Part shown: one piece after another, positions 9,362-63,516 of the stretch
Position numbering within the stretch: position 1 is the first letter of the stretch
Layout of the letters: each line of letters starts with the position of its first letter
Source of the DNA: Eledone cirrhosa
Taxonomy: Eukaryota
DNA: 64,000 bases
NCBI GenBank assembly: GCA_964016885.1
Contig: OZ024740.1
Span: forward strand, 258,602,001 to 258,666,000
Reading direction: 5' to 3'
The notes under the pieces: model-generated
Seen by the model: only the letters and a program-made list of their open reading frames with translations
The model's database searches: none
Told to the model about the DNA's origin: nothing
Program-made: the position numbers and the translations under genes

Positions 9362-9375
9362 ATTATTATTATAAA

Positions 9376-9408
<33 letters not shown>

Positions 9409-9622
9409 GGCGACCTACGGAGGAAATCGTATTATCGTGAGCTCCGCAAAGGTTTGTTGTTTTCAGTTGTTTCAAATTGCCATTTATAGAAAATTTTTGT
9501 TGTTAAGTGTTTATAAGTTCACATATATTGCTTTCGGAAAAGGACACTCAAAAAGATTGGGGCCTTGTGCCCAAAATTTAAACTTTTACATTTATCAAAC
9601 AAAAAATTTCTTTGAAAAAATC

Positions 9623-11582: not shown

Positions 11583-11616
11583 GTGGTCTTTCCCATCTTT
11601 TCCACTCCATTTCAAC

Positions 11617-14600
11617 ATGACCTCACTCAGAATAGGCAGCATAAATGCGCGTGGCTTGGGGTCGTCATGGAAGCAGGGCCACCTGTTCAACGACCTCAGG
11701 TCACTAAACATAGATGTAGTGGCCATCAGCGAGACCAGAATCTCCGAAGCACGGGCCTTCGCACCGATCTTCGGCGGCTGCGATGTATACGCATCTCCCA
11801 GCCGTCCTGGATCGGGGGGAGGAGTTTCTGTGCTTTTTTGGAGAGGTTTGGATCTCGCCATACGAGCCATCTTCCTGGGCCCAGAAGGTAAGTTGGTGGG
11901 GCTGGACGTGACCAGCAGAGACGGGCAAGCTTACAGGCTAGTGGCCGTCTATGCCCCGACAGGAGCAGGGTGGCCTGATTTCTTACGGCGTCTGGAGACC
12001 TTTCTAGGAACGTCCCGCTCTTTAGTGTTAGTGGGCGACTGGAACGGGATCTTAGATGCACGCTGGGACTGTGTGGGATTACGGATAGGGGAGGAGGGTG
12101 CAAGAGCCTCACCAACCTGCTCAGGCGTTTTGAACTATCTGACAGGTACCGATTGGATTTCCCGAATGTGCCAATGTGGACATGGACAAACCGCATCGGG
12201 TCATTCAGATTATATCTAGATAGAGTATTTTGTAGGGAAATAGATAGGTCTAGCATAGGCTGTCCACATTTCAAAATAGTCGACTACACGGACCACAAAT
12301 TCGTGATCTGTGAGGTTGACTTAGATAGGCTTCAAAGACAGGGACCCGGCTACTGTAAGCTAAATGCCTCCTTGCCAGCGCGCAAGGCCTACAGAGACCG
12401 GATTAGAGAACTACTTAAGCGAGCGTTGACGGGGGCCATCGTCAACAAGGAGTGGTGGTTTGCTCTGAAAAGAACGATTAGAATAGAGTCCATTAGGTTT
12501 AGTAAGTCTTTAGCTATAGAGAAAAATAGAGCAAAGGGAGAACTAGTTAGAAAATTAGACGAGGCGCTTAGCAAAGGCATCACGACCGACGTACTTGCGG
12601 CAAAATTGGCCCTTGAGCAATTCTTCAATGCAAAGCACGTTGTCAGACCTAGGGTGCGTGCTCTCAGACACGAGGGGACGAAAGCCGTTCAATGGGCCCG
12701 AGTGGCGGAGGCGCGTCGTGGCAACAAAGCCACGATCCGGTCTTTGGTGGACCACGACGGGCGCATGCTACTCGATCCCGGGCAAATGTGTGAAGCTTTT
12801 CAGCGACATTTCGCTCAGCTGTTCGGGGGCAGCGGCGGGCAAGATAGAGAGATGAACTTTAGTGTCTACCTCGACGGACTCCCGCGGTTCTCGGCCACTA
12901 AGGCGGAGTGTTGCGAAAAGCCGATAACAGCCACTGAAGTGCGGGAGGCAATGACTGGCTGCACAAGGGGTAAATCGCCTGGTTTGGATGGTCTGCCCTA
13001 TGAACTTTACGTACAGATGCCAGACTTGTTCGGAGGCCTCTTGGCGGACTGAGAAAGGGGGATAATGTAGATACTTTCAGGCCCATAACTCTGCCAAACA
13101 CAGAGTTAAACATTTTGGCCAAGGTGCTAGCAAAGAAGTTGGTGCTTGTCGTTGGTGGTCTGGTGGGAGAGGCGCAGACATGCGCCATTCCCGACAGTTC
13201 CATCCACGACCACCTCCACCTCATGCGATACATCCTAGAGAGGGTAGCTAGGGTACCTGGCACTGGTAGGTCCTTGATCAATTTAGATCAGTCGAAAGCT
13301 TTCGATAGGGTCGACCATCGTTACCTAGCGGCTGTCCTGTAGGCGGCTGGTTTTGGGTCCTTCTTCAAAGGCTGGATCGCTGCCCTGCACAGCGACATCT
13401 GTTCTGTGGTGAGAGTGGACGGTCACCTTTCGGAACCGTTCAATATCATGCGCTCGGTCCGCCAAGGATGTCCCCTCTCGTCCCTCTTGTACGTATTGAC
13501 TCTCGAGCCATTACTGCACAAACTGGAGACGTTGAGGTGGGTCCCGTGCGAACTAGGATGTTGAAGATCCGTCTCACCCAAAAATGGGCTGGGAGGAAGC
13601 TATCCCTGAAAGGTCGAGCGGAGGTGGCTGACGCGTACATCGCGTCCGTCATCTACTACCGCCTGACGGTCGTACCTTGTCCTAAGCCCCGCCTGACTGC
13701 GCTGGAGCGTTTGCTCTTTCGCTTTTTGTGGAAAGGATGCGCTCCGATGGTCAGGCGGTCAATCTGCTGTCAACACCCGCTACGTGGAGGGCTGGGCAGG
13801 TCGTGGCTGATGATGCACAGACACGCGCTCAAGCTACGACATCTCCACCTCTTCCTCGACGGTGATCAGATGTGGTCGCCGTTTGCTAGACGCGTCTTTC
13901 CCCAGCTCGTCTCCTTGACGGAGCTGCAGTCCTGGGTCAAGCAAAGACCGGGAGGGAGCGCTTGGAGACTGGAATGTCTTCAGGCGCTCACAGCCCTCGA
14001 CCAATCGGGCAATGTGATCGGTGGAAACTACACCTAGGCGTTCTATAGAGGATTAGTGGAGGGGAAGAGCGACGACGTACTTGAGGAAACTCTAGGCGTC
14101 GACGAAAATCAACTAGCCAATCTCTTCGGAAGATTTTAGGGCCGGGGCCTATGGACAACTTCCAGAAATCCCTGGCGTGGCAGTACTACCGAGGAGCTTT
14201 GCCAGTTCGGGATAAACTCTACAGGAATGGAGGTGCCGTCAGCCGGGCATGTCTGAGATGCCCGCAGGGCGACGAAACCGTCCTACACGCACTCGTCCAA
14301 TGTCCCAGCATTGCTGACTTGTGGGTTTATGTCGAACCCCTGCTGTCGCGTGTAGGACGGATCCGGCTATCAGCTGAGTCCATCGTGAGGATTGCCCAAC
14401 CCTCTTCCTTTAGCCGGGAAGGGCAGGCAATGTTTATCTGTCTGGTGGCCATGGTGAAAGGGATAGTATGGTGGACACGTTTGAAAAGGCTGAAGACGAG
14501 CACTTACCTCTTCGGTGATGCCCTGATTAACTTTTTCAAATTTCATTTGAAAAGGAAAATCAGGGTAGAAAGGAAGTGCTCTCTTCCCAGCATTTTGTTG

Positions 14601-14665
14601 AAAGATGGGTGAGAGAAGCAAGTATGGCCCGTGGGAATGGGTCTACTCTGAGTATGTGTCTGTAA
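11617..14665 (+). pseudogene. Tx1 copy B ORF2 (APE-RT), disrupted
   Basis: MTSLRIGSINARGL start, RT motifs, deletions near 13050 and 13560 (YADD lost), C-terminal CLRC..H..C. Confidence 0.85.
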
Positions 14666-14898
14666 ATTAAAGGTGGAAAACTGGGAGAGGGCACTTGCCC
14701 GGGTGGTCAGGGTCACTGTGGCCTTTTAATGGGCTTTCTCCAAAAATGTCCCTCGGAAGTTTCCCCCCTATTGGGGAATTTTTTTTTAGATCCTCTTTTT
14801 TTGTTTTTTACACGCAGAAATGCCCATTTGTACCGTCCTGTATTGTCCTGTACTGTCCTTTATGTAAACCCTTGTGGTTAATAAAGAAAACATTATTA

Positions 14899-14925
14899 CT
14901 GGCCTTGTGCCAAAAGTAGAAACAA
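14899..14925 (+). mobile_element. Isolated SINE 3' tail inside the (ATT)n spacer
   Basis: ctggccttgtgccaaaagtagaaacaa matches the 3' end of the full SINE at 23037-23220. Confidence 0.75.
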
Positions 14926-15152
14926 TTATTATTATTATTATTATTGGTGAAGCCACGCTTCTTATCGCCTCCAGTTGTTTTCAACGTTTTACCACGTTTT
15001 CAACCGTTCTAAACCTTTTATTCAAGTTTTAAATTTGATAAAAGTTTAGAAGAAGTGACCCACCTAATACAGGGGTTCACTCGTAAATAATACGGCACCA
15101 CTTTACGGGGTGTCGTATTGTGTAAAAATATTTTTTGAAAAAAAATGTCAAC

Positions 15153-17234
15153 ATGGATAACACAAGAAATAGAGACAGCGCTGTCAGACAACACAAAGAG
15201 AGGGAGACTTTATCAGCATGTCAACAAGACAGCGTTCCAGCGGAGGTAAATATAAACGAAAATATTACAAAGGAAAAGAGGATTGTTACAGATTTAAAAT
15301 TACCAAATATTTCTAACACAAACAACACCAACAATAACACCACCAACAACACCAACAACAACAACACCATCAATAACAACAGCAACAACAAAAGTAACAG
15401 CGGTAAGGTCGAGAACGACAATAACAAAAATAACAGCGGTAAGGTCGAGAACGACAATAACAATGACAATAACAACAGCCACAACAACAATAATAATAGG
15501 AACAGTATCAACAAAAACAACAATAATAACAACAGCCACAATAACAGTAACAACAGCAACAGTATCAACGAAAACAACACCAACAACTGTAACAGCGAAA
15601 AGAACAACAATGACACCGATACCTGTAACAGCGATCCCAGCACCACCAGCAAGACCAGTAGCGGCAGCAATAGTGGTGCTGCTGAAAAAGGGACCACTTC
15701 TTTTGCAGGTGTCGCCCGAAATATCAAGACAGTGTTAGTCACAGAGGAAGAGATGGCAGTCGCAAGGGCCATGGTGACAAGAACCGCCAATAGAGTCTCC
15801 CTGAAACCTCCACCCGATTTTTTCAAGGACCAGCAGCTACGGACGGTACGCACCGTAAGCAAAATCTCGCAAAATCTCACGTGGAGAGAGCCACGAAGGC
15901 TCAAATCCAAAAGGCCTTGGGGTGCGTCTGGGCACGCAAAACCCACATCACCCGAGGCAGAAAGTACGCCACAGTAGACGTACTTTTCGCCACCCCCAAG
16001 AAGCAAAGTCTCACACTTTGGAAACCCTAAAGAGTGAGGAGTTAGTCTTGGTGCTCTCCTACTGCGGGCCGAAAATTGTGAGGGTCAAAGTGACCCAGGT
16101 CCCACCCGAGGTGCCCGTACCTTGGCTGGCCGCGTCTGTCCATGCTGGAATCGAGGACAGGACAACCATGCTGCAAGTAGAGAAAATAGGGAGAGAGAAC
16201 TGGTCAGGTATAGGCATGCAAATGCTTATACAAACAGACCGGGAATGTTTCGACGCTATCCCGATATCATAGACATCGAGGAAGGACTCCAACTCCCTAT
16301 AAGCGTAGAAGGAAAACGGCCAAAATGTTATCCTTGTGGATCGAAGGGTCACCGCAGGGCCTTTTGCCCGCAGAAGACAGCGAAGAAGAAGGCCCCCTCT
16401 CCTTCCAATACCTGGTCCGCTGATACCAAGAGCAGGGCAGGCAACAAACGCAGAAGCCCCTTCTACGGTGAGTAGGAGGGCAACGTCCGTGGCACCGTCA
16501 ACTAAAGCAGCAGCATCAGTGGCGGCAACACCAATAGCTACATTTGAAGTAGCTACACCAGCAACAAAATTGCCGAAGAGGGCTCCACTACCACCTCCAA
16601 CAGCCGTGGAGCACATACCCCTCCCAGACGCCAAGGAATCCGACATAGAGTTTGAGGCGGGAGTGAAGTGGCAAACGGTCTGACACAAAAAACAAAAAAC
16701 GAAAAAAACCTTAGATTCACCCTCCAAAAGCGAAGGCACACAAAGAGGGGTAAAGGCAGCAAGAAAACTTGCAGCAACACCACCACCATCACCATCACAC
16801 CACAAACACCACCGCCAACAACAACCAGACCACCACCATCATCACCAAAAACACCAACAACGAAAACAAAACAAAACACACACACCAAACAGCAACAAGA
16901 AGAAAACAGCAACAAAATCACCCCTCCCCCCGAAAAGTACACAGCCATAAATATGGCAAAAAAAGAACTCATACAATATATAAAACAGCACACAGACATC
17001 ACAGAAAAAAACTACTAGACCCCACCAACACCAAGAACTCTCCCGACAAACATAAGCATCATTGAAATCTCAATAGAACAGTACAAACCTTTAAAACAAA
17101 AATTCCCCAACGCAGTTGGAGACTTCAGAGGGTCGGTTACCAAGAGGATATATTCTGACATCCTCTTGGAATCACCCATGACCAGCCAAAGGGATGGTTC
17201 TACTGTCCCTTCACCACACGATCAAGGTAAGTGA
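15153..17234 (+). pseudogene. Tx1 copy C ORF1, frameshifted
   Basis: Asn-rich N-terminus, SFAGVA, SYCGPKIVRVKVTQVPPEVPVPWL (homologous to copy B), CCHC knuckle. Confidence 0.75.
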
Positions 17235-17266
17235 CCCTTTCTCACTTGGCCCGTTTCTCTTCCAAC

Positions 17267-20265
17267 ATGGCCGCACTCAGAATAGGCAGTATAAATGCAC
17301 GTGGCCTGGGTCATCTTGGAAGCAGGGTCACTAAACATAGATGTGGTGGCCATCAGTGAGACCAGAATCTCTGAAGTACAAGCCTTCGCACCGATCTTTG
17401 GCGGCTACGATGTATACGCATCTCCCAGCCTTCCAGGAACAGGAGGAGGGGTTGCCGTCCTTTTTCGGAGATGCTTGGATCTCGCCATACGGGCCATCTT
17501 CCTAGACCCAGAAGGTAAGTCGGTGGTGCTGGACGTGACCGGCAGCGAAGGCAATGCTTTCAGTCTAGTAGCTGTCTACGCCCCAACAGGGGCAGGACGG
17601 CCAGATTTCTTTAGACGTCTAGAGACCTTTCTTGGAACGTCCCGCTCTTTAGTGTTAGTGGGCGACTGGAACGGTATCTTGGAGGCACGCTGGGATTGTG
17701 TGGGGCTAGTGGATAGGGGTGAGGGTGCCAGAGCCTCACCAACCTGCTCAGACGTTTTGAACTGTCTGACAGGTATCGACTGGACCACCCGAATGTGCCA
17801 ATGTGGACATGAACAAACCGCATCGGGTCATCCAGATCGTATCTCGATAGGGTATTCTGCAGAGAACTAGATAAGGCTAGTATAAGTTGTCCACAATTTA
17901 AAATAGTCGACTACACAGACCACAAATTTGTGATCTGTGGGATCGACATAGACAGACTTCATAGACAAGGGCCCGGTTACTGGAAGTTGAACACGTCTTT
18001 CCCGGCGCGCAAAGCCTACAGAGACCGAATTACCGTATTAGTTAAGCAGGCGTTGAGGGGAGCGGTCGTCAACTACAGGTGGTGGTTCGCCCTGAAAAGG
18101 CAATTAAAATAGAGGCGATTAGGTTTAGCAAAGGTCTAGTCATAGAGGAAAATAGAGTAGAGGGAGAGCTAGTCAGAAAGCTAGAAGAGGCGTTTAGGAC
18201 AGGCATCGCAACCGACGTGCTTGCGGCGAGATTGGCACTCGACCAATTCTTCAACGCAAAACACGAAGGCGGCGTTGTCAGAGCTAGAGCGCGTGCTCTG
18301 AAACACGAGGGGACAAAACCCGTCCAATGGGCCCGGGTGGCATAGACGCGACGTGGCAATAAAGCCACAATTCGGTCTTTGTCTGACCAAAACAGGTGCG
18401 TGTTGCTCGAACCCGAGCAGATGTGTGAAGCTTTCCAGCATCACTTTGCTGAACTGTTCGGGGGCAGCGGCGGCCCGGATCGGGGCATGGACTTCAGTGC
18501 ATACCTCGACGGACTGCCTCGGCTCTCGACGACCACAGCACACTGTTGCGAAAAGCCAATAACAGCCGGTGAAATACGGGAAGCGATGGCTAACTGCACG
18601 AGGGGTAAATCGCCAGGTTTGGATGGTCTGCTCTACGAGCTTTATGCATTTATGCCAGACTTGTTCGGTGACCTCTTGGCAGTCTACTGCAACTGGCAGC
18701 AGAACGGGAGCATTCCCAGTTTTGTGAGCCGGGGAGCCGTGGCGCTGTGAGAGTGACCGGTCACCTGTCGCAGTCGTTTAGCATCATGCGCTCAGTCCGC
18801 CAGAGTTGTCCCCTCTCGTCCCTCTTGTACGTATTGGCTCTCGAGCCGTTACTGCACAAACTGGGGGCGATTAGGGGCGTCCCACGCGAACTGGGATGCG
18901 GGAAGTCCGAGTCGGCTTACGCCGACGACGTCAGCGTGGTGGTATCGAGCACCAGACACGTCCAGATGCTCGGCACCGTTCTCAAGGAATACGAAGCGGT
19001 GACAGGAGCAAAGATAAACCAGGAAAAGTCGGTGGGCTTGCAGCTCGGCACCTGGAGAGGCAAGTCCATGCCGTCCGACAGCGTCGTGGGGCGTTGGACT
19101 GACGGACCGGTTAAATTGCTCGGGGTCTGGTTCGGACCGGACCTCCAGATGGAGAAAAACTGGAACGAGGTGACGAACAAGGTGGCCTCCCTCACTCAGA
19201 AATGGGCCGAGAGGAAGCTGTCCCTGAAAGGCCGGGCGGAGGTGGCGAATGCGTACATCGCATCCGTCATCTGCTACCGCCTCACCGTCGTCCCTTGCCC
19301 CGGCTCAACTCTCACCAAAATGGAGCGCCTCCTCTTCCGCTTTTTGTGGAAGGGACGCGCTCCCATGGTCAGACGATCCATCTGCCGTCAACACCCATTG
19401 CGTGGAGGACTGGGCATGCCATGTCTGATGATGCGCAAACAAGCGCTGAGGCTGCGACATCTCTGGTGCTTTCTTGACGGTGAACAAGTGTGGTCGCCGT
19501 TCGCCAGGCACGTTTTCCCACAGCTCGTCCCCTTGGCGGAGCTGCAGTCCTGGGTCAGAACAAGACCGAGGGATAGCGCTTGGAAACTGGAATGTCTCCA
19601 GGCGGTCACTGCCCTCTGCCAGCTGGGTACGAGTATCGGTGGAACATCCACCTTGGCGTCCTATAGAGGACTAGTGGAGGGGAAGAGCGACGACGTTCTC
19701 GGAGAGATCCTGGGCGTCCAAGAAGATCAGTTGTTTGCTCTCTTCCGGAGAACTTTCTGCCCAGGGCCTATGGATAACTTCCAAAAATCCCTGGCCTGGC
19801 AGTGGTACCGGGGAGCACTGCCGGTTCGAGATAAGCTCTACAGGCACGGAAGTGCCGTCAGCCGAGCATGTCCGAGATGCGCCGAAACCGTCGTGCACGC
19901 ACTCCTTCAGTGCCCGAGCATTGCTGACTCGTAGAGCTATGTCGAACATTTGCTGTCACGTGTAGGACGGATCAGGTTATCGACTGAGTCCATTGTGCAG
20001 ATGGTCTCACCGTCTTCATTCGAGGGGGAAGAGCAGGCGGTTTTCATCTACCTGGTGGCCATGCGAAAGAGATTGTATGGTGGGGAAGGTTGAAAGGGTT
20101 AAAGACACTTTCCTCTTCGGCGAATCCCCAATTAACTTTTTCAAGTTTCACTTGAAGAGGAAAATCAGGGTGGAGAGGCAAGTGCTGCCTTCCAGCAAGT
20201 TTGTTGAAAGGTGGGTGAATGTAGCGAGAATGGTCCGAGTGAACGGGACCGCGTCTGTAGTTTGA
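17267..20265 (+). pseudogene. Tx1 copy C ORF2 (APE-RT), disrupted
   Basis: CAACATG start, APE motifs, deletion near 18747 removing the N-terminal RT subdomains, YADD retained. Confidence 0.85.
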
Positions 20266-24509: not shown

Positions 24510-27500
24510 AACGTCATCACCACTACCGCCAACACCATCACCACTACCACCAATACCATCACCACTACCACCAACACCATCACCACTACCACCAACACCA
24601 TCACCACTACCGCCAACACCATCACCACTACCACCAATACCATCACCACTACCACCAATACCATCACCACTACCACCAACACCATCACCACTACCACCAA
24701 TACCATCACCACTACCACCAATACCATCACCACTACCACCAACACCATCACCACTACCACCAACACCATCACCACTACCGCCAACACCATCACCACTACC
24801 ACCAATACCATCACCACTACCACCAATACCATCACCACTACCACCAACACCATCACCACTACCACCAATACCATCACCACTACCACCAAAACCATCACCA
24901 CTACCACCAACACCATCACCACTACCACCAACACCATCACCACTACCACCAACGCCATCACCACTACCACCAACGCCATCACCACTACCACTACCACCAA
25001 TACCATCACCACTACCACCAACACCATCACCACTACCACTACCACCAATACCATCACCACTACCACCAACACCATCACCACTACCAACAATACCATCACC
25101 ACTACCACCAATACCATCACCACTACCACCAACACCATCACCACTACCACCAACACCATCACCACTACCGCCAACACCATCACCACTACCACCAATACCA
25201 TCACCACTACCACCAATACCATCACCACTACCACCAACACCATCACCACTACCACCAATACCATCACCACTACCACCAATACCATCACCACTACCACCAA
25301 CACCATCACCACTACCACCAACACCATCACCACTACCACCAACGCCATCACCACTACCACCAACGCCATCACCACTACCACTACCACCAATACCATCACC
25401 ACTACCACCAACACCATCACCACTACCACTACCACCAATACCATCACCACTACCACCAACACCATCACCACTACCACCAACGCCATCACCACTACCACTA
25501 CCACCAACGCCATCACCACTACCACCAATACCATCACCACTACCACCAATACCATCACCACTACCACCAACACCATCACCACTACCACCAACACTATCAC
25601 CACTACCATCGACACCATCACCACTACCACCAACGCCATCACCACCAATACCATCACCACTACCACCAATACCATCAGCACTACCACCAACACCATCACC
25701 ACTACCACCAACACCATCACCACTACCACCAACATCATCACCACTACCACCAACACCATCACCACTACCACCAACACCATCACCACTACCACCAACACTA
25801 TCACCACTACCACCAACACCATCACCACTACCACCAACACCATCACCACTACCACCAATACCATCAGCACTACCACCAACACCATCACCACTACCACCAA
25901 CACCATCACCACTACCACCAATACCATCAGCACTACCACCAACACCATCACCACTACCACCAACACCATCACCACTACCACCAACGCCATCACCACTACC
26001 ATCGACACTATCACCACTACCACCAACACCATCACCACTACCACCAATACCATCACCACTACCACCAACACCATCACCACTACCACCAACACTATCACCA
26101 CTACCATCGACACCATCACCACTACCACCAACACCATCACCACTACCACCAACACCATCACCACTACCACCAACACCATCACCACTACCACCAACGCCAT
26201 CACCACTACCATCGACACCATCACCACTACCACCAACACCATCACCACTACCACCAACACCATCACCACTACCACCAACACCATCACCACTACCACCGAC
26301 ACTATCACCACTACCATCAAGGCCATCACCACTACCACCAACACCATCACCACTACCGCCAACACCATCACCACTAACACCGACACCATCACCACTACCA
26401 CCAACACTATCACCACTACCATCAACACCATCACCACTACCACCAACACCATCACCACTACCACCAATACCATCAGCACTACCACCAATACCATCACCAC
26501 TACCACCAACACCATCACCACTACCACCAATACCATCAGCACTACCACCAACACCATCACCACTACCACCAACACCATCACCACTACCACCAACGCCATC
26601 ACCACTACCATCGACACTATCACCACTACCACCAACACCATCACCACTACCACCAACACCATCACCACTACCACCAACACTATCACCACTACCATCGACA
26701 CCATCACCACTACCACCAACACCATCACCACTACCACCAACACCATCACCACTACCACCAACGCCATCACCACTACCATCGACACCATCACCACTACCAC
26801 CAACACCATCACCACTACCACCAACACCATCACCACTACCACCAACACCATCACCACTACCACCGACACTATCACCACTACCATCAACGCCATCACCACT
26901 ACCACCAACAACATCACCACTACCGCCAACACCATCACCACTAACACCGACACCAGCACCACTACCACCAACACTATCACCACTACCATCAACGCCATCA
27001 CCAATACCACCAACACCATCACCACTACCACCAATACCATCACCACTACCACCAACACCATCACCACTACCACCAACGCCATCACCACTACCATCGACAC
27101 CATCACCACTACCACCAACACCATCACCACTACCACCAACACCATCACCACTACCACCAACACCATCACCACTACCACCGACACTATCACCACTACCATC
27201 AACGCCATCACCACTACCACCAACACCATCACCACTACCGCCAACACCATCACCACTAACACCGACACCATCACCACTACCACCAACACTATCACCACTA
27301 CCATCAACGCCATCACCACTAACACCGACACCATCACCACTACCACCAACACTATCACCACTACCATCTACGCCATCACCACTACCACCAACACCATCAC
27401 CACTACCGCCAACACCATCACCACTAACACCGACACCATCACCACTACCACCAACACTATCACCACTACCATCAACGCCATCACCACTAACACCGACACC

Positions 27501-30500
27501 ATCACCACTACCACCAACACTATCACCACTACCATCTACGCCATCACCACTACCACCAACACCATCACCACTACCGCCAACACCATCACCACTAACACCG
27601 ACACCATCACCACTACCACCAACACCATCACCACTACCACCAACACCATCACCACTACCACCAACGCCATCACCACTACCACTACCACCAACGCCATCAC
27701 CACTACCACCAATACCATCACCACTACCACCAATACCATCACCACTACCACCAACGCCATCACCACCAATACCATCACCACTACCACCAATACCATCAGC
27801 ACTACCACCAACACCATCACCACTACCACCAACACCATCACCACTACCACCAACATCATCACCACTACCACCAACACCATCACCACTACCACCAACAATA
27901 TCACCACTACCACCAACACCATCACCACTACCACCAACACCATCACCACTACCACCAATACCATCAGCAATACCACCAACACCATCACCACTACCACCAA
28001 CACCATCACCACTACCACCAATACCATCAGCACTACCACCAACACCATCACCACTACCACCAACACCATCACCACTACCACCAACGCCATCACCACTACC
28101 ATCGACACTAACACCACTACCACCAACACCATCACCACTACCACCAATACCATCACCACTACCACCAACACCATCACCACTACCACCAACACTATCACCA
28201 CTACCATCGACACCATCACCACTACCACCAACACCATCACCACTACCACCAACACCATCACCACTACCACCAACACCATCACCACTACCACCAACGCCAT
28301 CACCACTACCATCGACACCATCACCACTACCACCAACACCATCACCACTACCACCAACACCATCACCACTACCACCAACACCATCACCACTACCACCGAC
28401 ACTATCACCACTACCATCAACGCCATCACCACTACCACCAACACCATCACCACTACCGCCAACACCATCACCACTAACACCGACACCAGCACCACTACCA
28501 CCAACACTATCACCACTACCATCTACGCCATCACCAATACCACCAACACCATCACCACTACCGCCAACACCATCACCACTAACACCGACACCATCACCAC
28601 TATCACCAACACCATCACCACTACCACCAACACCATCACCACTACCACCAACGCCATCACCACTACCACTACCACCAACGCCATCACCACTACCACCAAT
28701 ACCATCACCACTACCACCAATACCATCACCACTACCACCAATACCATCACCACTACCACCAATACCATCACCACTACCACCAAGACCATCACCACTACCA
28801 CTAACACCATCACCACTACCACCAACGCCATCACCACTACCACCAACGCCATCACCACTACCACTACCACCAATACCATCACCACTACCACCAACACCAT
28901 CACCACTACCACTACCAACAATACCATCACCACTACCACCAACACCATCACCACTACCACCAATACCATCACCACTACCACCAATACCATCACCACTACC
29001 ACCAACCCCATCACCACTACCACCAACACCATCACCACTACCACCAACGCCATCACCACTACCACCAACGCCATCACCACTACCACTACCACCAATACCA
29101 TCACCACTACCACCAACACCATCACCACTACCACTACCACCAATACCATCACCACTACCACCAACACCATCACCACTACCACCAACGCCATCACCACTAC
29201 CACTACCACCAACGCCATCACCACTACCACCAATACCATCACCACTACCACCAATACCATCACCACTACCACCAACACCATCACCACTACCACCAACACT
29301 ATCACCACTACCATCGACACCATCACCACTACCACCAACGCCATCACCACTACCATCAATACCATCACCACTACCACCAATACCATCAGCACTACCACCA
29401 ACACCATCACCACTACCACCAACACCATCACCACTACCACCAACATCATCACCACTACCACCAACACCATCACCACTACCACCAACACCATCACCACTAC
29501 CACCAACACTATCACCACTACCACCAACACCATCACCACTACCACCAACACCATCACCACTACCACCAATACCATCAGCACAACCACCAACACCATCACC
29601 ACTACCACCCACACCATCACCACTACCACCAACACCATCACCACTACCACCAACACCATCACCAGTACCACCAACGCCATCACCACTACCATCGACACCA
29701 TCACCACTACCACCAACACCATCACCACTACCACCAACACCATCACCACTACCACCAACACCATCACCACTACCACCGACACTATCACCACTACCATCAA
29801 CGCCATCACCACTACCACCAACACCATCACCACTACCGCCAACACCATCACCACTAACACCGACACCATCACCACTACCACCAACACTATCACCACTACC
29901 ATCAACGCCATCACCACTACCACCAACACCATCACCACTACCGCCAACACCATCACCACTAACACCGACACCATCACCACTACCACCAACACCATCACCA
30001 CTACCACCAACACCATCACCACTACCACCAACGCCATCACCACTACCACTACCACCAACGCCATCACCACTACCACCAACGCCATCACCACTACCACCAA
30101 CGCCATCACCACTACCACCAACGCCATCACCACTACCACCAATACCATCACCACTACCACCAACACCATCACCACTACCACCAACTGCATCACCACTACC
30201 ACCAACACCATCACCACTACCACCGACACCATCACCACTACCACCAACGCCATCACCACTACCACCAACACCATCACCACTACCACCAACACCATCACCA
30301 CTACCACCAATATCATCACCACTACCACCAACACCATCACCACTACCACCAACGCCATCACCACTACCACCAACACCATCACCACTACCACCAACGCCAT
30401 CACCACTACCACCAACACCATCACCACTACCACCAACACCATCACCACTACCACCAACGCCATCACCACTACCACCAACACCATCACCACTACCACCAAT

Positions 30501-31660
30501 ACCATCACCACTAACACCGACACCATCACCACTACCACCAACACCATCACCACTACCACCAACGCCATCACCACTACCACCAACACCATCACCACTACCA
30601 CCAACACCTTCACCACTACTACCAACACCATCGACACTACCTCCAATACCATCACCACTACCACCAACACCATCACCACTACCACCAACACCATCACCAC
30701 TACCACCAATACCATCACCACTACCACCAACACCATCACCACTACCACCAACACCATCACCACTACTACCAACACCATCGACACTACCTCCAATACCATC
30801 ACCACTACCACCAACACCATCACTACTACCACCAACGCCATCACCACTACCACCAACACCATCACCAGTACCACCAACACCATCACCACTGCCACCAACA
30901 CCATCACCACTAACACCGACACCATCACCACTACCACCAACACTATTACCACTACCATCAACGCCATCACCACTACCGCCAACACCATCACCACTACCAC
31001 CAACACCATCACCACTACCACCGACACCATCACCACTACCACCAACACCATCACCAGTACCACCAACACCATCACCACTGCCACCAACACCATCACCACC
31101 AACACCGACACCATCACCACTACCACCAACACTATCACCACTACCATCAACGCCATCACCACTACCACCAACACCATCACCACTGCCACCAACACCATCA
31201 CCACTAACACCGACACCATCACCATTACCATCGACACCATCACCACTACCACCAACACCATCACCACTACCACCAACACCATCACCACTACCACCAACAC
31301 CATCACCACTACCACCAACACCATCACCACTACCACCAACACCATCACCACTACCACCAATACCATCACCACTACCACCTACACCATCACCACTACCACC
31401 AACACCATCACCACTACCACCAACACCATCACCACTACCACCAACACCATCACCACTACCACCAACACCATCACCACTACCACCAACACCATCACCACTA
31501 CCACCAACACCATCACCACTACCACCAACACCATCACCACTACCACCAACACCATCACCACTACCACCAACACCATCACCACTACCACCAACACCATCAC
31601 CACTACCACCAACACCATCACCACTACCACCAACACCATCACCACTACCACCAACACCAT
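24510..31660. repeat. 21-bp minisatellite (ACCATCACCACTACCACCAAC)n, about 340 units
   Basis: Direct periodicity, with variant 15-bp and 27-bp units and recurring blocks of variants. Confidence 0.97.
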
Positions 31661-35639: not shown

Positions 35640-37065
35640 TTCAGGTTTGAGGTTCACCACTGTATAGAGCTGGTCTATTCCGTATGGTCAATCGTAATGC
35701 AATAATATAGAGAGTACTCAACGTAAGGCAGTTCAACCGTCTTTGTTTTTGTAGTTGGTGGTGCTATTACGGAGTTAAATATTATAATGAAATGACAGGA
35801 GGCTGGATTTGTGTAAATCCTTGAAAGGTTTATTATACTATGATCATTTCAATGACGGGGTTCCGTATGACGGAACCCGGTTTTGTGTATGATTTGTTTT
35901 TTAGAAAAGTAGATGATGGCGCGCGTCTACCTGAAATGGAAAAAAAAACGTTTTGTAAAAAGAGCATTGCGCACGTGCGTAAGCATGAGTGTGTGTATGT
36001 GTGTGTGTGTGTGTGTGGGGTGTGTGTGTGTGTGGGGGGGGGGTTATTATAGGTCCGTACGAAGCTAAGAAGAGATATGTGTGTATATGTGCGTAAAAGA
36101 GTGTGTGTGCATGTAAGTACGAAGTTATGAGCAAAGAGAAAGCGATAGGAATCTAGGGGTGTGATAATGGACGGGGTATTAGAGAAATTAGGGAGGTGAG
36201 TTGAGTCCAAGAGGGGAATAGGACCCAAGACGATGAATCAGACTTTGTTCAGTCCTGGTGCGCGAGGCCTGTGTTCCATGATGTAAAAGGACACCCAGGA
36301 CTGAAACATGTAGGGAAGAATGACCTGGAGAACAGAAATGACGGGCGACAGGCGTATCCAAACCGAGTCGTATGTCCCTCAAATGTTCGGCAAAGCGGTC
36401 CCCCATACGGCGTCCCGTTTGTCCGATATAAAAGGGAACATCGGAGGGCATAGACAACATGGGTGGATATGCAGGTGAAGGAATGGCGGATACGGAAAGA
36501 CCCGTTAGGGCCTGTAAGAGTGGTGAGGGTGGAAATAAATGGACAAGTGTTGCAGCAGGAACGGGAACAAGGATGAGAGCCGGGTGGAGTCTTGGGAAAG
36601 GACGAAAAAGAACTACGAACTAGGAGGACGCGGAGGTTTCGGGCGCGCTTAAAAGCAGTTATGGGTGAGTTTGGAAAAAAGCGAGAAGTGACGGGGCCAG
36701 AAGAGAGGATACGGAAGGAACGGTGCTTATGTCACCGGAGTGGTAGGATGTTGGGGTGGTAGGTGAGAGGGAAAGGAACACGGGTGTTGGGAGGGCGAGG
36801 GTGAGGTGAGAGGGCTGTGGTGCGGTCTGTTTCACGGGCCCGGGTGAGAGTAGCTTGGATCAAGTTGAGGGGGGGGGGGGTATCCACGCTGGATGAAGCA
36901 TGAAGCCATGCGAAGGGAATGGGTTTCGAAATCGTCGTCCTGGCTACAGAGTCGACGAAGACGGAGGAATTGGGAGTAGACTATGGAGTGTTTGGTGTGG
37001 CTTGGATGGGAGGAGGTGGAGTCGAGATAAGATTGGGAGTCTGTTGGTTTAATGTAGAGACGGTG
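35640..37065 (-). mobile_element. Penelope-like element 3' part (Neptune-type: thumb, Cys linker, GIY-YIG), degraded
   Basis: HSIVYSQFLRLRRLCSQDDDF..FIQRGY, PCSRSCCNTCPF, YIGQTGRRMGDRFAEHLRDI..PVARHF..EQSLIHRLGSYSPLGLN (36188-36460). Confidence 0.85.
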
Positions 37066-37898
37066 TGGTGAGAGTGATTAATATAGTGGTAGAACACTGG
37101 AAGGTAATATCCGTAGTGGTAGAGCACTCAGTCCATGGGACGGGTTAGGTAGAAGTGGTTACACAACAATTGTTCTCGGTATGGTGAACTAACTGTTGTG
37201 TAACCACTTATATATATATATATATATATATATAGGAGTACTGTGATCCTTGCGATTTCGAGATATACAACCACTGACACTGTTACGAAGACCAGAAAAC
37301 CATACTCCATAATATTGAACCAAGTGATTGATTTGTGCGACCAAAATAACACCACACACATATTGAACTAGGAATATTGGATCCTCCGTCAATGTCTGGG
37401 TGAGCAAAAATAGATTTCTATCTGCATTGGAATTTACGAACTTGTGCATCTGCTGTGGTGTCAAAAACAAACGCACATGACCGCACAGATAAACAATGGA
37501 CTATGCCACGTGGATTGAATCCGTAAGTGAATTGAAGGTTCTGTAACTCTGATATACAGATTATTTATTATTAAGATGTATAAACTTGACATAACTATTA
37601 TCATCTTATATTCTCTCAACTAATCACATTTGATCATATTTCTCTATCCCGTTTTCTCCCCTCATAATTATAAAATCAATTAAATTAAAAATGTACATCC
37701 ACATATGTATACTGAAATACTAGTATGCATATGAATACACACACGTGTACATATGTAGATGTACCGAGTTTTTCACTGGACACTTTACTGTGAGTGTCCA
37801 GCTATTCTGTATGTAAACACACAGACAAACCGGTTTTTAGAGTCATACTGGTTTTCGAGGAAACACCTTTCCTCTATTCTCCAGAAAGCCAGACAAGG

Positions 37899-37943
37899 AA
37901 TATTGGACTAGTTTCGATGTTGTTACATCTCATCAGCAATATT
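37899..37943 (-). ncRNA. Type I hammerhead ribozyme (array unit 1)
   Basis: Reverse complement reads aatattg-CTGATGA-gatgt aaca acatc-GAA-AC ta GT-C-caatatt. Confidence 0.88.
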
Positions 37944-38364
37944 TACCTATCTTCCGGCCTTTCTAGAGAATCGTAAAAGCACATATCGTTATATGCTTTT
38001 TCTATGAAAATTAGTAGTGGGCAGACTAATTTGCATAGAGCGTGAGTACGTACCGGTTCAGCGGAGACGATAAAAACAAATAACGAAACGAAATTAAATT
38101 TCGTTTCGTTTGTAACTCACTTTTGTATGACTGACGCTTAAACAATTAAATTAAAAATGTACATCCACATATGTATACTGAAATACTAGTATGCATATGA
38201 ATACACACACGTGTACATATGTAGATGTACCGAGTTTTTCACTGGACACTTTACTGTGAGTGTCCAGCTATTCTGTATGTAAACACACAGACAAACCGGT
38301 TTTTAGAGTCATACTGGTTTTCGAGGAAACACCTTTCCTCTATTCTCCAGAAAGCCAGACAAGG

Positions 38365-38409
38365 AATATTGGACTAGTTTCGATGTTGTTACATCTCATC
38401 AGCAATATT
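38365..38409 (-). ncRNA. Type I hammerhead ribozyme (array unit 2)
   Basis: Same sequence as unit 1, +466. Confidence 0.88.
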
Positions 38410-38830
38410 TACCTATCTTCCGGCCTTTCTAGAGAATCGTAAAAGCACATATCGTTATATGCTTTTTCTATGAAAATTAGTAGTGGGCAGACTAATTTGC
38501 ATAGAGCGTGAGTACGTACCGGTTCAGCGGAGACGATAAAAACAAATAACGAAACGAAATTAAATTTCGTTTCGTTTGTAACTCACTTTTGTATGACTGA
38601 CGCTTAAACAATTAAATTAAAAATGTACATCCACATATGTATACTGAAATACTAGTATGCATATGAATACACACACGTGTACATATGTAGATGTACCGAG
38701 TTTTTCACTGGACACTTTACTGTGAGTGTCCAGCTATTCTGTATGTAAACACACAGACAAACCGGTTTTTAGAGTCATACTGGTTTTCGAGGAAACACCT
38801 TTCCTCTATTCTCCAGAAAGCCAGACAAGG

Positions 38831-38875
38831 AATATTGGACTAGTTTCGATGTTGTTACATCTCATCAGCAATATT
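38831..38875 (-). ncRNA. Type I hammerhead ribozyme (array unit 3)
   Basis: Same sequence, +932. Confidence 0.88.
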
Positions 38876-39296
38876 TACCTATCTTCCGGCCTTTCTAGAG
38901 AATCGTAAAAGCACATATCGTTATATGCTTTTTCTATGAAAATTAGTAGTGGGCAGACTAATTTGCATAGAGCGTGAGTACGTACCGGTTCAGCGGAGAC
39001 GATAAAAACAAATAACGAAACGAAATTAAATTTCGTTTCGTTTGTAACTCACTTTTGTATGACTGACGCTTAAACAATTAAATTAAAAATGTACATCCAC
39101 ATATGTATACTGAAATACTAGTATGCATATGAATACACACACGTGTACATATGTAGATGTACCGAGTTTTTCACTGGACACTTTACTGTGAGTGTCCAGC
39201 TATTCTGTATGTAAACACACAGACAAACCGGTTTTTAGAGTCATACTGGTTTTCGAGGAAACACCTTTCCTCTATTCTCCAGAAAGCCAGACAAGG

Positions 39297-39341
39297 AATA
39301 TTGGACTAGTTTCGATGTTGTTACATCTCATCAGCAATATT
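39297..39341 (-). ncRNA. Type I hammerhead ribozyme (array unit 4)
   Basis: Same sequence, +1398. Confidence 0.88.
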
Positions 39342-39873
39342 TACCTATCTTCCGGCCTTTCTAGAGAATCGTAAAAGCACATATCGTTATATGCTTTTTC
39401 TATGAAAATTAGTAGTGGGCAGACTAATTTGCATAGAGCGTGAGTACGTACCGGTTCAGCGGAGACGATAAAAACAAATAACGAAACGAAATTAAATTTC
39501 GTTTCGTTTGTAACTCACTTTTGTATGACTGACGCTTAAACAATTAAATTAAAAATGTACATCCACATATGTATACTGAAATACTAGTATGCATATGAAT
39601 ACACACACGTGTACATATGTAGATGTACCGAGTTTTTCACTGGACACTTTACTGTGAGTGTCCAGCTATTCTGTATGTAAACACACAGACAAACCGACAA
39701 ACACACAGACAAACGAAATTTAATTTCGTTTCGTTATTTGTTTTTATCGTCTCCGCTGAACCGGTACGTACTCACGCTCTATGCAAATTAGTCTGCCCAC
39801 TACTAATTTTCATAGAAAAAGCATATAACGATATGTGCTTTTACGATTCTCTAGAAAGGCCGGAAGATAGGTA

Positions 39874-39918
39874 AATATTGCTGATGAGATGTAACAACAT
39901 CGAAACTAGTCCAATATT
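39874..39918 (+). ncRNA. Type I hammerhead ribozyme (inverted arm, unit 5)
   Basis: aatattgCTGATGAgatgtaacaacatcGAAACtaGTCcaatatt, predicted cleavage after 39911. Confidence 0.9.
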
Positions 39919-40339
39919 CCTTGTCTGGCTTTCTGGAGAATAGAGGAAAGGTGTTTCCTCGAAAACCAGTATGACTCTAAAAACCGGTTTGTCTGTGTGT
40001 TTACATACAGAATAGCTGGACACTCACAGTAAAGTGTCCAGTGAAAAACTCGGTACATCTACATATGTACACGTGTGTGTATTCATATGCATACTAGTAT
40101 TTCAGTATACATATGTGGATGTACATTTTTAATTTAATTGTTTAAGCGTCAGTCATACAAAAGTGAGTTACAAACGAAACGAAATTTAATTTCGTTTCGT
40201 TATTTGTTTTTATCGTCTCCGCTGAACCGGTACGTACTCACGCTCTATGCAAATTAGTCTGCCCACTACTAATTTTCATAGAAAAAGCATATAACGATAT
40301 GTGCTTTTACGATTCTCTAGAAAGGCCGGAAGATAGGTA

Positions 40340-40384
40340 AATATTGCTGATGAGATGTAACAACATCGAAACTAGTCCAATATT
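40340..40384 (+). ncRNA. Type I hammerhead ribozyme (inverted arm, unit 6)
   Basis: Same sequence as unit 5, +466. Confidence 0.9.
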
Positions 40385-41235
40385 CCTTGTCTGGCTTTCT
40401 GGAGAATAGAGGAAAGGTGTTTCCTCGAAAACCAGTATGACTCTAAAAACCGGTTTGTCTGTGTGTTTACATACAGAATAGCTGGACACTCACAGTAAAG
40501 TGTCCAGTGAAAAACTCGGTACATCTACATATGTACACGTGTGTGTATTCATATGCATACTAGTATTTCAGTATACATATGTGGATGTACATTTTTAATT
40601 TAATTGTTTAAGCGTCAGTCATACAAAAGTGAGTTACAAACGAAACGAAATTTAATTTCGTTTCGTTATTTGTTTTTAATTATAAAATCTTTATTTGAAA
40701 AAATCGGTTTTTTTACATTGTGTTTTCCCCTTCAAATACTTGCTTATATTTCTTTATATATTCTCTATATATTTTTTTATATATATATTTTTTATCTTTA
40801 TTCTTATTTTCACTTTTATCCTCCTTTATATTTTACCTTATTCTTACTTTTATACCTTATTATAGTGAAATCTTCCCCATGCCTTATTATACATTATTAA
40901 TTATAGATTATTATTATTACTCTTTTTCCATTTCTAATTACCTCATGTACTTTCTCCTCCGTTATATATATATATATAGTGTATGCCCTTTGTGTTTGTG
41001 TAGCCTCTGCACACCCTCTGCACCCTACTATCGACGCCACCCCATCTATGGTTCAGCTAACCACTCGACTCCCGGGAATGAATATGACCGCAGCTAGTAA
41101 ACAAGGACCCACACCCCACTCTCCCGCACCAAAATTAGACTTATCGTCCCCTACTTTTGCTCTTTACTCTCTTTACTCTTTGTTCTTGAATGTTTGGTTG
41201 GTAGAGTCCATAACACCAATCAAACCCCTTTTATA

Positions 41236-41280
41236 GCTCTGACGAATCCTACGGTTACGTAAGGAAGAAACATTGTAAGC
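41236..41280 (+). ncRNA. Minimal hammerhead ribozyme (probable PLE pLTR)
   Basis: gct-CTGACGA-a-tcctacg gtta cgtaagga-a-GAAAC att GTA-agc. Confidence 0.65.
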
Positions 41281-41499
41281 CAATACAAATCTTTTGATGT
41301 TGTAGACGCTCTTGTGTTCTTTATCATATATATATATACATATATAAATATATATATATGTGTATATATATATATATGTATATAGGAACCAGTTATTCCT
41401 ATTACCAACTCAACTACCCTAAGTATTGAGTACTTTGGTGCGTTATGGTCCACCTGGTTCCTTACCACATTTCCTTCCACATTTCCTTCGTTAAATATG

Positions 41500-43911: not shown

Positions 43912-44690
43912 CTATATATAGGGCTTAAAGTTTTGGAAGGAATGTCTGAGGCGGTGCTGGCAAGTTGCAAACACCTCAGATTTTTTGTTAAGTAGGTTAC
44001 GGTTGGAGAAGATAATATTGTGTGTCTCTAGTATACAGAGGTTACAGAATTTATTAGGTGGTTTGTACGAGGTCGCGCTGCCTATCACTTCCCATTTGAG
44101 TGTGTATGGTTTATTTTTAGATTTTAGATAGTGTATGTAGCTAGAAAGTGAGGTGGAGTTGGCTAGGCTGTGCTTTTTGAACGAGTGGATGTGCGAGTTA
44201 TATCTGATTTTGAAGCAGTTAGAAGTGGAGCCTACATAGGTTTCTGAAGAGTTATTAGTCGTGACTGTGCATGAGTATATGACATCCTTGGTTAGGCATT
44301 TTTTATCTAAAGGGCAGGTTCTATTAGCTCTACAGTTACAATTATTCTGTGCGTTAGTCCGCTGGTTATAATGCAATGCGGAAGTCTGTGTGGTGGATAT
44401 AGGATTTTGGGTGTTCGGGTTGACAACCCTGGTGTTATTACTTATACTAGTGTTATTTCTATTGTTACTGCCGTTGCTATTGTTGCTTGCTACAGTGGTA
44501 TTTAGAGGGTTTGCATCCCGTTGTGATTTTGTTTGTTGGAAGTAAGAACTAATTTTACTATTATTGCTGCTAGCTATGTGGTATGCTAAGTTAGGCGTCG
44601 TAGAGTATGAGATTTTAATGGTGTTTTTGTTTAAGAGGTTGTGGTACTTGTGTCCTAGAGGGAAGTTTTTATCTAGTAGTGAGAAGAAAG

Positions 44691-44691
<1 letters not shown>
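43912..44691 (-). mobile_element. Naiad-type Penelope-like element, 5'-truncated, open thumb-linker-GIY-YIG frame
   Basis: FFSLLDKNFP..LLNKNTIKISYS, CNCRANRTCPLDKKC (CxCx5C), VIYSC..YVGSTSNCFKIRYNSH, CNLCILE, LLNKKSEVFATCQH. 5' end abuts (TA)n. Confidence 0.9.
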
Positions 44692-44725
<34 letters not shown>

Positions 44726-46481: not shown

Positions 46482-47039
<558 letters not shown>

Positions 47040-50111: not shown

Positions 50112-50166
50112 ACTGCTATATATATTTCGGTGACAGCCATCATTGTCTGTGACCTCTTCAGGCAGT
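50112..50166 (-). ncRNA. Hammerhead ribozyme in fold-back element ~50056-50450
   Basis: actgc-CTGAAGA-ggt..gaca..tgtc-acc-GAAAT atat ATA-gcagt. 50059-50120 is an inverted copy of ~50288-50349. Confidence 0.7.
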
Positions 50167-61186: not shown

Positions 61187-62970
61187 CATTTCTTTATTAG
61201 CCACAAGGGCACAAAAGAAGGGGACAAATACAAATGGGGAGTTTACATACAGGTGTATGAAAATAAAACTATTAATAAAATAACAAATAACAATTAATAT
61301 CCCCAATAGGGGGGAGGTGTTACACAGGGGTTGTACACACCCCGAAAAAATGTACAACCCTCATCTCCAGGAGCACCAAGAGTGAGTACACCCTTCCTCT
61401 CTTCCTCTTTTTCTTCAACCTACAGGCTTATATAGATAGAAGGCCCAACCACTCGGGCCATCTTTGCCACATTCACCCACCTTTTATAAAATTTTCTGGG
61501 GTACAGCACCTCTCTCTCCATCCTGATTCTTCTTCCAAAATGATATTTGAAAAAACGAATCAGTTGCTCGCCGGAGAGAAAGGTGTCTGACCTCAGCCCT
61601 TTTAACATCGTCCACCATATAACCTCTTTCACCATAGCCATAACACATAGGAAAACCGCTTCTCCCTCGTTTTTGAAGGAGGGTGGTGGTTTGATCGTGA
61701 CAATGGACTCGGTGGTCAACTGGATTGGTCCCACCCGCTACAATAGTCGTTCCACATAGCCCCACAGGTCTGTAACGCCCGGGCAGTGCACAAATGCGTG
61801 CGCGACGGTTTCCTCGTCGCACACGCATCTCGGACAGATCTTTTTCGAAGGGTCCCTACCCGGGCGCCCGTGTCTGTAGAGCTTGTCTCGAACTGGTAGA
61901 GCTCCTCGGTAGCACTGCCAGGCCAGGGACTTTTGGAAGTTGTCCATTGGTCCCGGGCGGAAGGTCCTACCAAACAGACTGGCCAGTTCGTCCTCCGCTA
62001 CGCCTAGAGTTTCTCAGAGCACGTCGTCGCACTTGCTGCGGACCAACCCTCTATAGAATGTCGAAGTGGAGTCTCCACTGATCGCCGGGTCCGTTTGCCA
62101 GAGGACTGTGAGCGCCTGAGCACATTCGATGTGCCAGTCGCCCATTTTCCTCGGTATTTGCTTGACCCAGGACTGCGGCTCGGTCAGCGAGACGAGTTGT
62201 GGGAAGGCTCGCCTCACGAATGGGGCCCACACCTTTTGTCTGGTGAGGAATACGTGGAGGTGCCGCAGCCTGAGCGCGTGTTTGCGCATCGTCAGCCAGG
62301 GGATCCTCAGCCCTCCGTTTGAAGGGTGTTGGCAGGAGATGGATCTTTTCACCAAAGGAGCCCGTTTCTTCCAAAGGAATTGGAAGAGCGCGCGCTCCAT
62401 TTTGGTGAGCGTTTTGGCTGGACAAGGCACGTCGGTCAAGCGGTAGCAGATGATGGACGCTATAAAAGTGTTCGCCACCTCCGCTCGAACTTTCAAGGAT
62501 AATTTGCACTTTGCCCACTTCTGGGTGAGCGCAAACGCCTTGGCCGTCACCTCGTTCCAGTTCTTCTCCACCTCGAGGTCAGGACCAAACCAGACCCCGA
62601 GCAGCTTTACCGGTCCTTTCGTCCAGCGTCCGACGACGCCATCGGAAGGCATCGGTTTGCCTCTCCACGTTCCGAGTTGCAAACCGACGGATTTGTCCCG
62701 GTTCAGCTTCGCTCCTGTGAACCTTTCGAATTCCACCAGTAAGGTGCCGATCTCCCCGATTTGCGAGGTGCTCGACACCATTACTATAATGTCGTTGGTG
62801 TAGGCCGACGCCGCTTTTCGCAGTCCCGATTCCAGAGGTATGCCCTGCAATAGCTCCAACTTCCGCAGTAGTGGCTCGAGAGTCAGTACGTACAGAAGGG
62901 GGGAGAGAGGGCATCCCTGTCGAATGGATCGCGTGATATGGAACGGCTCCGAGAGGTAGGCGTTCACCTT
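61187..62970 (-). mobile_element. Tx1-clade LINE, 5'-truncated in RT, (GATA)n on both flanks
   Basis: RSIRQGCPLSPLLYVL, SAYTNDII (degenerate YADD), MDNFQKSLAWQCYRGALPVRDKL, CPRC..H..C. Confidence 0.9.
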
Positions 62971-62989
62971 GATAGATAGATAGATAGAT

Positions 62990-63062
<73 letters not shown>

Positions 63063-63516
63063 CATACATAGATAGATAGATACATAGATGGTCATCATTT
63101 TGTTATCACCAAATTCATCATCATTATAATCTTCAAATCCCTCCTAGGCTAACTTTGCCTATCATCCTTACGGGGTTGATAAAATAAAGTACCAGTAATG
63201 CACTGGATTAACTGCTGGTCTTCAACAACATCTTTAACAAAATCATCACTATCATCCTCATCACCATCATCATCACTATAATCATCACTATCATCACATT
63301 CATCGTCATCACTATCTGCATCATTCTCATCACTACCATCATCGCTACCATCATCACATCAAACGCCAACACCATCACCACTATCACCAGCAACACCACT
63401 ACCATCACCACCAACACCACCAACACCACCACCATTACCAGCAACAATATCAAACCACCACAAACGCCAACACTAACACCGCCGCCACTAAACCCCCACC
63501 ATCATCAACCGTATCA

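Follow-up and report, generated by a model that had tools for sequence, protein, structure and literature searches.

The window, by which we mean the whole 64,000-nt stretch of Eledone cirrhosa DNA analysed here, carries an insertion of 6.4 identical 466-nt units arranged in two outward-pointing arms (4.33 units on the minus and 2.08 on the plus strand), which we read, with a probability of roughly 0.6, as the product of a 466-nt non-LTR retrozyme that was inserted very recently with the help, in trans, of a protein from a Penelope-like element (PLE). The parts of this reading differ in firmness: we hold it very probable that the element is a non-LTR retrozyme and probable that it was inserted by PLE-driven double priming, while a circular template is somewhat favoured over a linear one. 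The stems, the dimer-type hammerhead and the tandem form of the unit are standard for animal retrozymes; the value lies in the footprint of the insertion (Table 1). Within the literature covered, which includes few subscription papers and of which two supplements may show similar insertions, no retrozyme with inverted arms and a tail was found, these structures being unmentioned for metazoan retrozymes in the accessible text of PMC7229834 and of a 2026 preprint (10.64898/2026.07.22.740005); nor, in the same scope, has a cephalopod retrozyme been described.

Table 1. Coordinates of the insertion, the predicted monomer and its structural elements within the window.
Feature	Position	Strand	Remarks
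Left target site duplication (TSD) copy	37665..37677	+	13 bp, AT-rich; longest string common to both insertion ends
Left arm	37677..39696	-	4.33 units, circle 74 to 229; hammerhead sense on minus
Left-arm hammerheads (n=4)	cores start 39334, 38868, 38402, 37936	-	
Junction patch	39697..39710		14 nt; 12/14 letters repeat left-arm end
Right arm	39711..40678	+	2.08 units, circle 266 to 301; two hammerheads
'Tail'	40607..40678	+	about 70 nt, circle 230-301; at right insertion end, absent from left end
Right TSD copy	40677..40689	+	13 bp
Cut-to-cut monomer	39912..40377	+	466 nt; predicted circular RNA
Type I hammerhead domain	39846..39941	+	extended stem I
Hammerhead core; stem II; stem III	39881-39887; 39888-39901; 39905-39910	+	stem III palindromic
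Stem	40053-40069/40108-40124	+	17 bp, one G-U
Hairpin	40173..40201 (circle 262-290)	+	perfect 14-nt inverted repeat; between two putative RT start sites

Both arms show zero differences among their units, all six complete hammerheads (6/6) are intact and identical, and the insertion is very recent. Its empty form appears in three contigs of sequencing run X1, which join left-flank-like letters directly to 40680; compared by eye, 27 of 30 letters agree with the left flank, which is itself repeated, so that these contigs may be paralogs. The patch at the junction of the arms is a templated insertion with microhomology. The insertion shows whole-unit tandems instead of an LTR-core-LTR layout, and no ORF was found within it, including the RT plus GIY-YIG ORF between pseudo-LTRs that marks an autonomous PLE. 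Followed from its target end inward, each arm is antisense to the hammerhead strand, and together they would be the expected product of two first-strand cDNAs primed from two 3' overhangs, a geometry that would fix the polarity of the RNA independently of its folding. Homology between target primer and RNA amounts to 1-2 nt at the two ends, and both arm ends follow largely unpaired stretches of the circle (93rd and 98th percentile, i.e. the top 7% and 2%). They lie about 70 nt apart (circle 229 and 301) with the perfect hairpin between them. Among the six loose ends listed for X1, unit copies stop at 40678 (10 contigs), 40684 (2) and 40610 (2), in each case running into (TA)n, the others being 40379 (1), 40596 (1) and the empty form; the listing leaves aside 93 loose ends over the four runs compared. 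The recurrent ends coincide with those of the insertion on the right (301) and on the left (229), with the qualification that 40678 is also where the comparison reference leaves the unit and that the end at 40610 rests on 2 contigs.

Such a footprint is reminiscent of PLEs. The accessible text of PMC11167929 reports on a PLE protein that cleaves AT-rich DNA on both strands and extends both of them, starting internally, without homology, in an AC-rich stem-loop, and its two start sites yield a 'tail' considered 'unique to PLEs'; PMC8557442, as far as its accessible text goes, describes PLE tandems that include an inverted 5' copy, together with a tail of 30-40 bp, often at one end only, and calls the origin of these structures undefined. 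Like PLEs, exemplified by Poseidon PAc, whose targets are AT-rich or microsatellite DNA, our locus combines an AT-rich target with tandem units and an inverted copy, and its one-sided tail would derive from two internal start sites with little primer homology (PMC11167929, PMC8557442, both in part). The likeness is not complete, as the tail measures about 70 nt versus the 30-40 bp described, the second recurrent end is found on 2 contigs, and in vitro both strands used the same start sites (PMC11167929, as excerpted) whereas here the two ends differ. The unit also departs from PLEs in having no RT/EN ORF, whole-unit tandems and a canonical rather than minimal hammerhead. The unit could be tied to no helper PLE by sequence, and Pfam and a homolog search missed the GIY-YIG fragments of the window. 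For retrozymes, rolling-circle copying of circles by PLEs has been proposed (PMC7229834, PMC7761336), and in the 2026 preprint phylogeny supports a PLE origin while local tandem growth is favoured; in the portions of this literature consulted, the mobilising enzyme and the circular template of animal retrozymes are proposed, not shown.

Taking these observations together, we propose that transcription of tandem copies yields RNA of the hammerhead strand and that adjacent hammerheads, as their architecture and the literature suggest, would exchange the palindromic stem III and excise monomers, which a host ligase would circularise, the weak stem III leaving a lone circle poorly cleavable. A PLE RT/endonuclease would then nick both strands of the AT-rich target 13 nt apart, as reflected in the duplication, and both 3' ends would prime internally at two preferred and largely unpaired sites, circle 229-233 and 299-301, where the arms are seen to end. 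Copying would run for the observed 4.33 and 2.08 unit lengths, in the simplest case round one circle, before the two cDNA ends would join via the microhomology and short templated patch present at the junction. Since crossover cannot expand an arm of less than one unit, both arms must have been born longer than one unit; one circle explains their lengths most simply, with a homogeneous linear multimer as the alternative. More tentatively still, and with odds that we would put somewhat below even, a dimer of a Penelope protein may, in a single event, have started from both cut strands on the same circular retrozyme RNA, rolling round it 4.3 and 2.1 times; the two start sites would then give a retrozyme 'tail', and the perfect A/C-rich hairpin between them would be the PLE recognition site. 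If true, this would bear out the proposed circle-plus-PLE life cycle with direct evidence from a genome and explain in simple terms how tandem and inverted PLE insertions arise. In any case, the target cuts can be read exactly from the mutation-free copy, along with two start sites and a candidate recognition hairpin, the array apparently arrived longer than one unit, as opposed to growing only by local expansion, and the 466-nt unit could be used as a template in the in vitro assay already established for PLEs. An open mechanism becomes testable through this footprint.

The ribozyme of the unit is a canonical type I hammerhead with a loop/bulge motif, and not the 'minimal' hammerhead that the preliminary description had seen in it; a 7-bp stem I, an intact core and a 5-bp stem II are followed by A-CUAG-U-C, with predicted cleavage between 39911 and 39912, and the palindromic stem III (A-CUAG-U) is present just as described. 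The Rfam model HH9 aligns over its full length, covering the stem I bulge and loop 2, at 39863-39934 and 40329-40400 with 38.9 bits (E 3.9e-8), short of the gathering score of 52, and a scan of the whole window at the gathering threshold returned 0 Rfam matches. The antisense circle is devoid of a CUGANGA core, and among the Rfam matches listed no ribozyme family fell on the minus strand. A second ACUAGU in the unit, read by eye, cannot build a stem I. Closing the 1-bp stem III within a monomer is calculated to cost 5.9 kcal/mol (probability about 2e-6 in the linear domain), and the intermolecular 6-bp palindrome to give -4.8 kcal/mol. The unit thus has the helix III of 1-2 bp with palindromic loop found in most metazoan type I hammerheads, which function as dimers (PMC4209133, in part), and the axolotl hammerhead of the same architecture shows 6% cleavage as a monomer and is efficient as a dimer (PMC7229834, in the accessible text); most invertebrate retrozyme hammerheads are described as having a stable helix III and being cut as monomers (PMC7761336, likewise in part). 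On these energy models and parallels, the 'dimer-type' hammerhead claimed earlier would be a sound inference, and an ordinary one among animal retrozymes. Newt satellite 2 and axolotl HHR_Amex1 share with our unit the one-pair helix III, the palindromic tetraloop, the loop 1-loop 2 motif and the tandem context, a likeness of architecture from which the invertebrate, probably octopod, host sets our unit apart.

The same hammerhead motif is common, as scans selecting for its exact form found 2 viral and 81 metagenomic loci, 64 of them with both stems at least 3 bp long and 19 with a same-strand RT-like ORF nearby. None of these 83 motif-selected loci matched the unit in blastn at E 1e-3 (0/83). 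Five (L061, L067, L052, L028 and L050) are tandem units of 491-634 nt with the same motif and weak folding (z -2.5 to +0.3). At others (L079, L080, L016, L046, L055 and similar), the same CUAG-loop hammerhead is placed between RT elements of two ORFs, which have a weak RVT_1 match or none; the repeat period is 3.0 kb at L080 and 3.5 kb at L079. These may be endonuclease-less PLEs.

The preliminary description had bracketed 355 nt (39846..40200) as the monomer; the true unit is 466 nt long, has a GC content of 36% and holds as its longest frame round the circle 57 codons in sense and 60 in antisense. Its sense strand is devoid of Pol III boxes, TATAAA and a poly(A) signal. Matches to miRNAs and snoRNAs lie far below Rfam gathering and were rejected as chance hairpins. 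All of the stems first noted were recovered: the stem I of about 30 bp holds roughly, as a linear fold of 39846-39941 gives 28 bp in four helices (13+5+3+7), the 13-bp helix (39846-39858/39929-39941) including one G-U; the 17-bp stem was found as claimed, and the commonest family allele at the mismatch adjoining it lengthens it further; and the 14-bp perfect hairpin exists as an inverted repeat, but is physically a 13-bp stem with a 3-nt loop and ends 1 nt past the end first given. Folded as a circle, the sense strand reaches an MFE of -154.0 kcal/mol versus -94.6 +- 5.7 in 100 dinucleotide shuffles (z -10.5), with 67% of its letters paired in a branched, not rod-like, fold. This bore out the expected folding advantage over shuffles, but the antisense circle is nearly as unusual (-133.8 kcal/mol, z -8.8). 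'Viroid-like' is apt only loosely, the element being a genomic retrozyme with a single ribozyme polarity and a branched structure.

As to the G-U pairs said to form on the hammerhead-sense strand only, the energies agree, but the counts are not significant. Without G-U pairs both strands are equal (-124.1 kcal/mol sense, -124.5 antisense), so that the 20 kcal gap between them is due to G-U; this gap (-20.2 versus -5.6 +- 5.3 in shuffles) is measured against a weak null, since the shuffles lack helices. The pairs themselves number 8 in sense (the core pair left out) versus 5 in antisense (P 0.29), or 3 versus 2 under a strand-neutral definition (P 0.5). Comparison of four of the 20 runs holding words of the unit (X1, X4, X7 and X15) yielded 30 variant sites in the monomer. 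The covariation expected among copies was seen at one place in stem II, where positions 40355 and 40366 show a clear and common pair of compensatory changes (44% and 32% of X1 depth) that occur together in one X15 record, but it did not extend to the 30 variants as a whole: on the sense fold 10 keep, 11 break and 9 are unpaired, against a null of 8.0, 10.5 and 11.5 (not significant), and the energy test over all variants gave P 0.56 for sense and 0.13 for sense minus antisense. Taken by themselves, the 19 variants that reach at least 5% in X1 disturb the sense fold less than random ones (P 0.05, or 0.02 for the 17 left without the stem II pair), these two subsets having been chosen afterwards among five in all, and the sense minus antisense effect is not significant throughout (P 0.13-0.22). 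The variant set of X15 record 13 leaves the sense fold unchanged, with 0/40 random sets as mild and also 0/40 in antisense; that of X4 costs +0.6 in sense and +9.6 in antisense, and that of X15 record 14 +1.8 and +5.2. One X7 record would add two more compensatory pairs, but only once an indel is shifted by eye, and these carry little weight. Altogether, selection on RNA structure is moderately supported and a strand asymmetry of this selection is only suggested. The identification of the hammerhead strand as the functional RNA is supported and draws more on the geometry of the insertion than on G-U counts.

With 1755 matching contigs in X1, the unit belongs to a high-copy family, which is diverse in this run: 755 of these contigs are at least 99% alike and 1000 fall below 99%. 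All array units share five tested letters, and at site 222 all seven copies carry a letter seen in less than 0.01% of X1 depth, which indicates that the array is clonal, a contrast that is weakened if X1 comes, as it may, from another population. At the cleavage nucleotide (40377, circle 466), 76% of X1 depth has U, not C. A U at this position may slow cutting. In one X15 record it occurs together with the stem II swap, which marks a second subfamily. Tandem joints that go back 466 nt were seen in X1 and X4. Words of the unit occur in 20 runs under 17 organism labels, the matching records reaching a depth of 2-17 in X4, X7 and X15 versus a very high summed depth in X1; the other 16 runs are not counted towards host range. 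No RNA run is listed among those with such words, which speaks neither for nor against expression. X15 also contains part of the genomic flank, a sign of carried-over host DNA, and the matches in other runs likely represent carry-over of a very abundant host repeat. The loose ends in X4 and X15 may resemble plant and ruminant repeats. One 495-nt contig of X4, a run bearing a different organism label and compared on window positions 40213-40678, spans the whole unit closed on itself, has two letters absent from X1 and is compatible with a circle as well as with a DNA tandem; X21, from the same sample, holds next to none of the unit words, which is no proof of absence.

Several other accounts have to be weighed against this reading. 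The same retrozyme and PLE enzyme might have used as template an uncleaved linear multimer of a homogeneous donor array, some units possibly being added later by unequal crossover, an account that we regard as unlikely, though of real weight. In its favour, changes in repeat number can outpace the accumulation of point mutations. Moreover, multimeric RNAs persist in axolotl (PMC7229834), local tandem amplification is proposed in the 2026 preprint, and uncleaved RNA was the main PLE substrate in vitro (PMC11167929), which favours a linear template as far as the accessible parts of these sources go. Yet identical array units with rare letters in common stand against a heterogeneous family in X1, a linear template would have to keep up to six dimer-competent hammerheads uncut, and crossover fails to build an array from an arm below one unit. 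If the unit were instead a pseudo-LTR belonging to an autonomous PLE, and the locus an insertion of that PLE in 5'-truncated, tandem and inverted form, the PLE-type architecture (PMC8557442), the derivation of retrozymes from pseudo-LTRs in the 2026 preprint (both as excerpted) and the RT-like ORFs near 19/83 same-motif loci would find a place; this is nevertheless quite improbable, as the unit neither contains an ORF nor has one attached, minimal hammerheads prevail in PLEs (PMC4209133, in part) and the unit's is canonical, the loose ends listed for X1 show (TA)n and no shared coding flank, and X4 has the unit closed on itself.

It is very improbable that the locus represents a viroid-like RNA that replicates freely, passes between hosts as well and has here become endogenised. 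The very stable circular fold, far above that of the five metagenomic tandem hammerhead units, the unit words in 20 runs under 17 labels and the closed X4 contig with its two private letters would suit such an agent, but the antisense strand has no hammerhead core and no listed ribozyme family, the fold is branched, depth is very high in X1 and low in X4, X7 and X15, with a flank piece in X15, and blastn found no match among the 83 motif-selected viral and metagenomic loci. Twin priming by an L1/Tx1-type LINE leaves arms that point outward in the same way, with a duplication of 7-20 bp and microhomology at the junctions, and here the window is rich in L1/Tx1-like pieces and the right insertion end follows a U5 run; the insertion has no poly(A) tail, however, and recurrent internal ends at two sites with (TA)n targets are PLE features (PMC11167929, PMC8557442, accessible text), which leaves this mechanism extremely improbable. 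An assembly artefact, either a fold-back chimera or a collapsed repeat, would account for the zero differences and the inverted structure, but is hardly credible given that the flanks differ, carry the duplication and join in empty-form contigs, that the arms are unequal, that the junction has a templated patch, and that a 21-bp array of the same window retains variation (90% matches).

Among known systems, the retrozyme to which we assign the unit agrees best with the metazoan non-LTR retrozymes of PMC7229834 and the 2026 preprint (accessible parts), with which it shares non-coding tandems, one type I hammerhead per unit, a GC content below 50%, a self-paired fold, a target duplication of more than 4 bp and PLE remnants in the same genome. 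Its 466 nt exceed the 170-400 nt given in PMC7229834 but fall within the 51-972 bp of the preprint, both as excerpted. Expression as linear and circular RNA and self-cleavage, further retrozyme traits, are predicted for the unit. Avsunviroidae and viroid-like circular RNAs are likewise small, highly paired, hammerhead-bearing and closable. Avocado sunblotch viroid reportedly also uses a double hammerhead. Viroid identity was nonetheless rejected, as the unit has one ribozyme polarity and, unlike Avsunviroidae, a high-copy chromosomal DNA form that is integrated with a target duplication and other insertion marks.

The neighbourhood holds further traces of PLEs. Two broken GIY-YIG-like endonuclease remnants, at 36188-36731 (-) and 43912-44724 (-), rest on Atlas feature matches (score 0.93-0.96, at 36188-36619 and 43912-44724) and motifs, were not picked up by Pfam or the homolog search, and probably belong to two different PLE groups. 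PLE-type minimal hammerheads are found at 46716, 46814, 48835 and 56821, plus one at 50161; the first two (46716 minus, 46814 plus) form an older, outward-pointing inverted pair at 46610-46919. The target of the insertion is a repeated element (37235-37677 and 40677-41325) with a summed depth of 1e4-1e5 in X1, and a weak hammerhead-like motif lies within it near 41233-41283. Elsewhere in the window, 337 copies of a 21-bp repeat (24515-31660) leave more than 2400 codons open on both strands (Thr-rich or Gly/Asp-rich) and may be a minisatellite or a mucin-like exon. Broken L1/Tx1-like LINE copies cluster at 5283-20100 and 61400-63100, and the nearest named eukaryotic match of a LINE in the window is the octopod Argonauta hians (64%).
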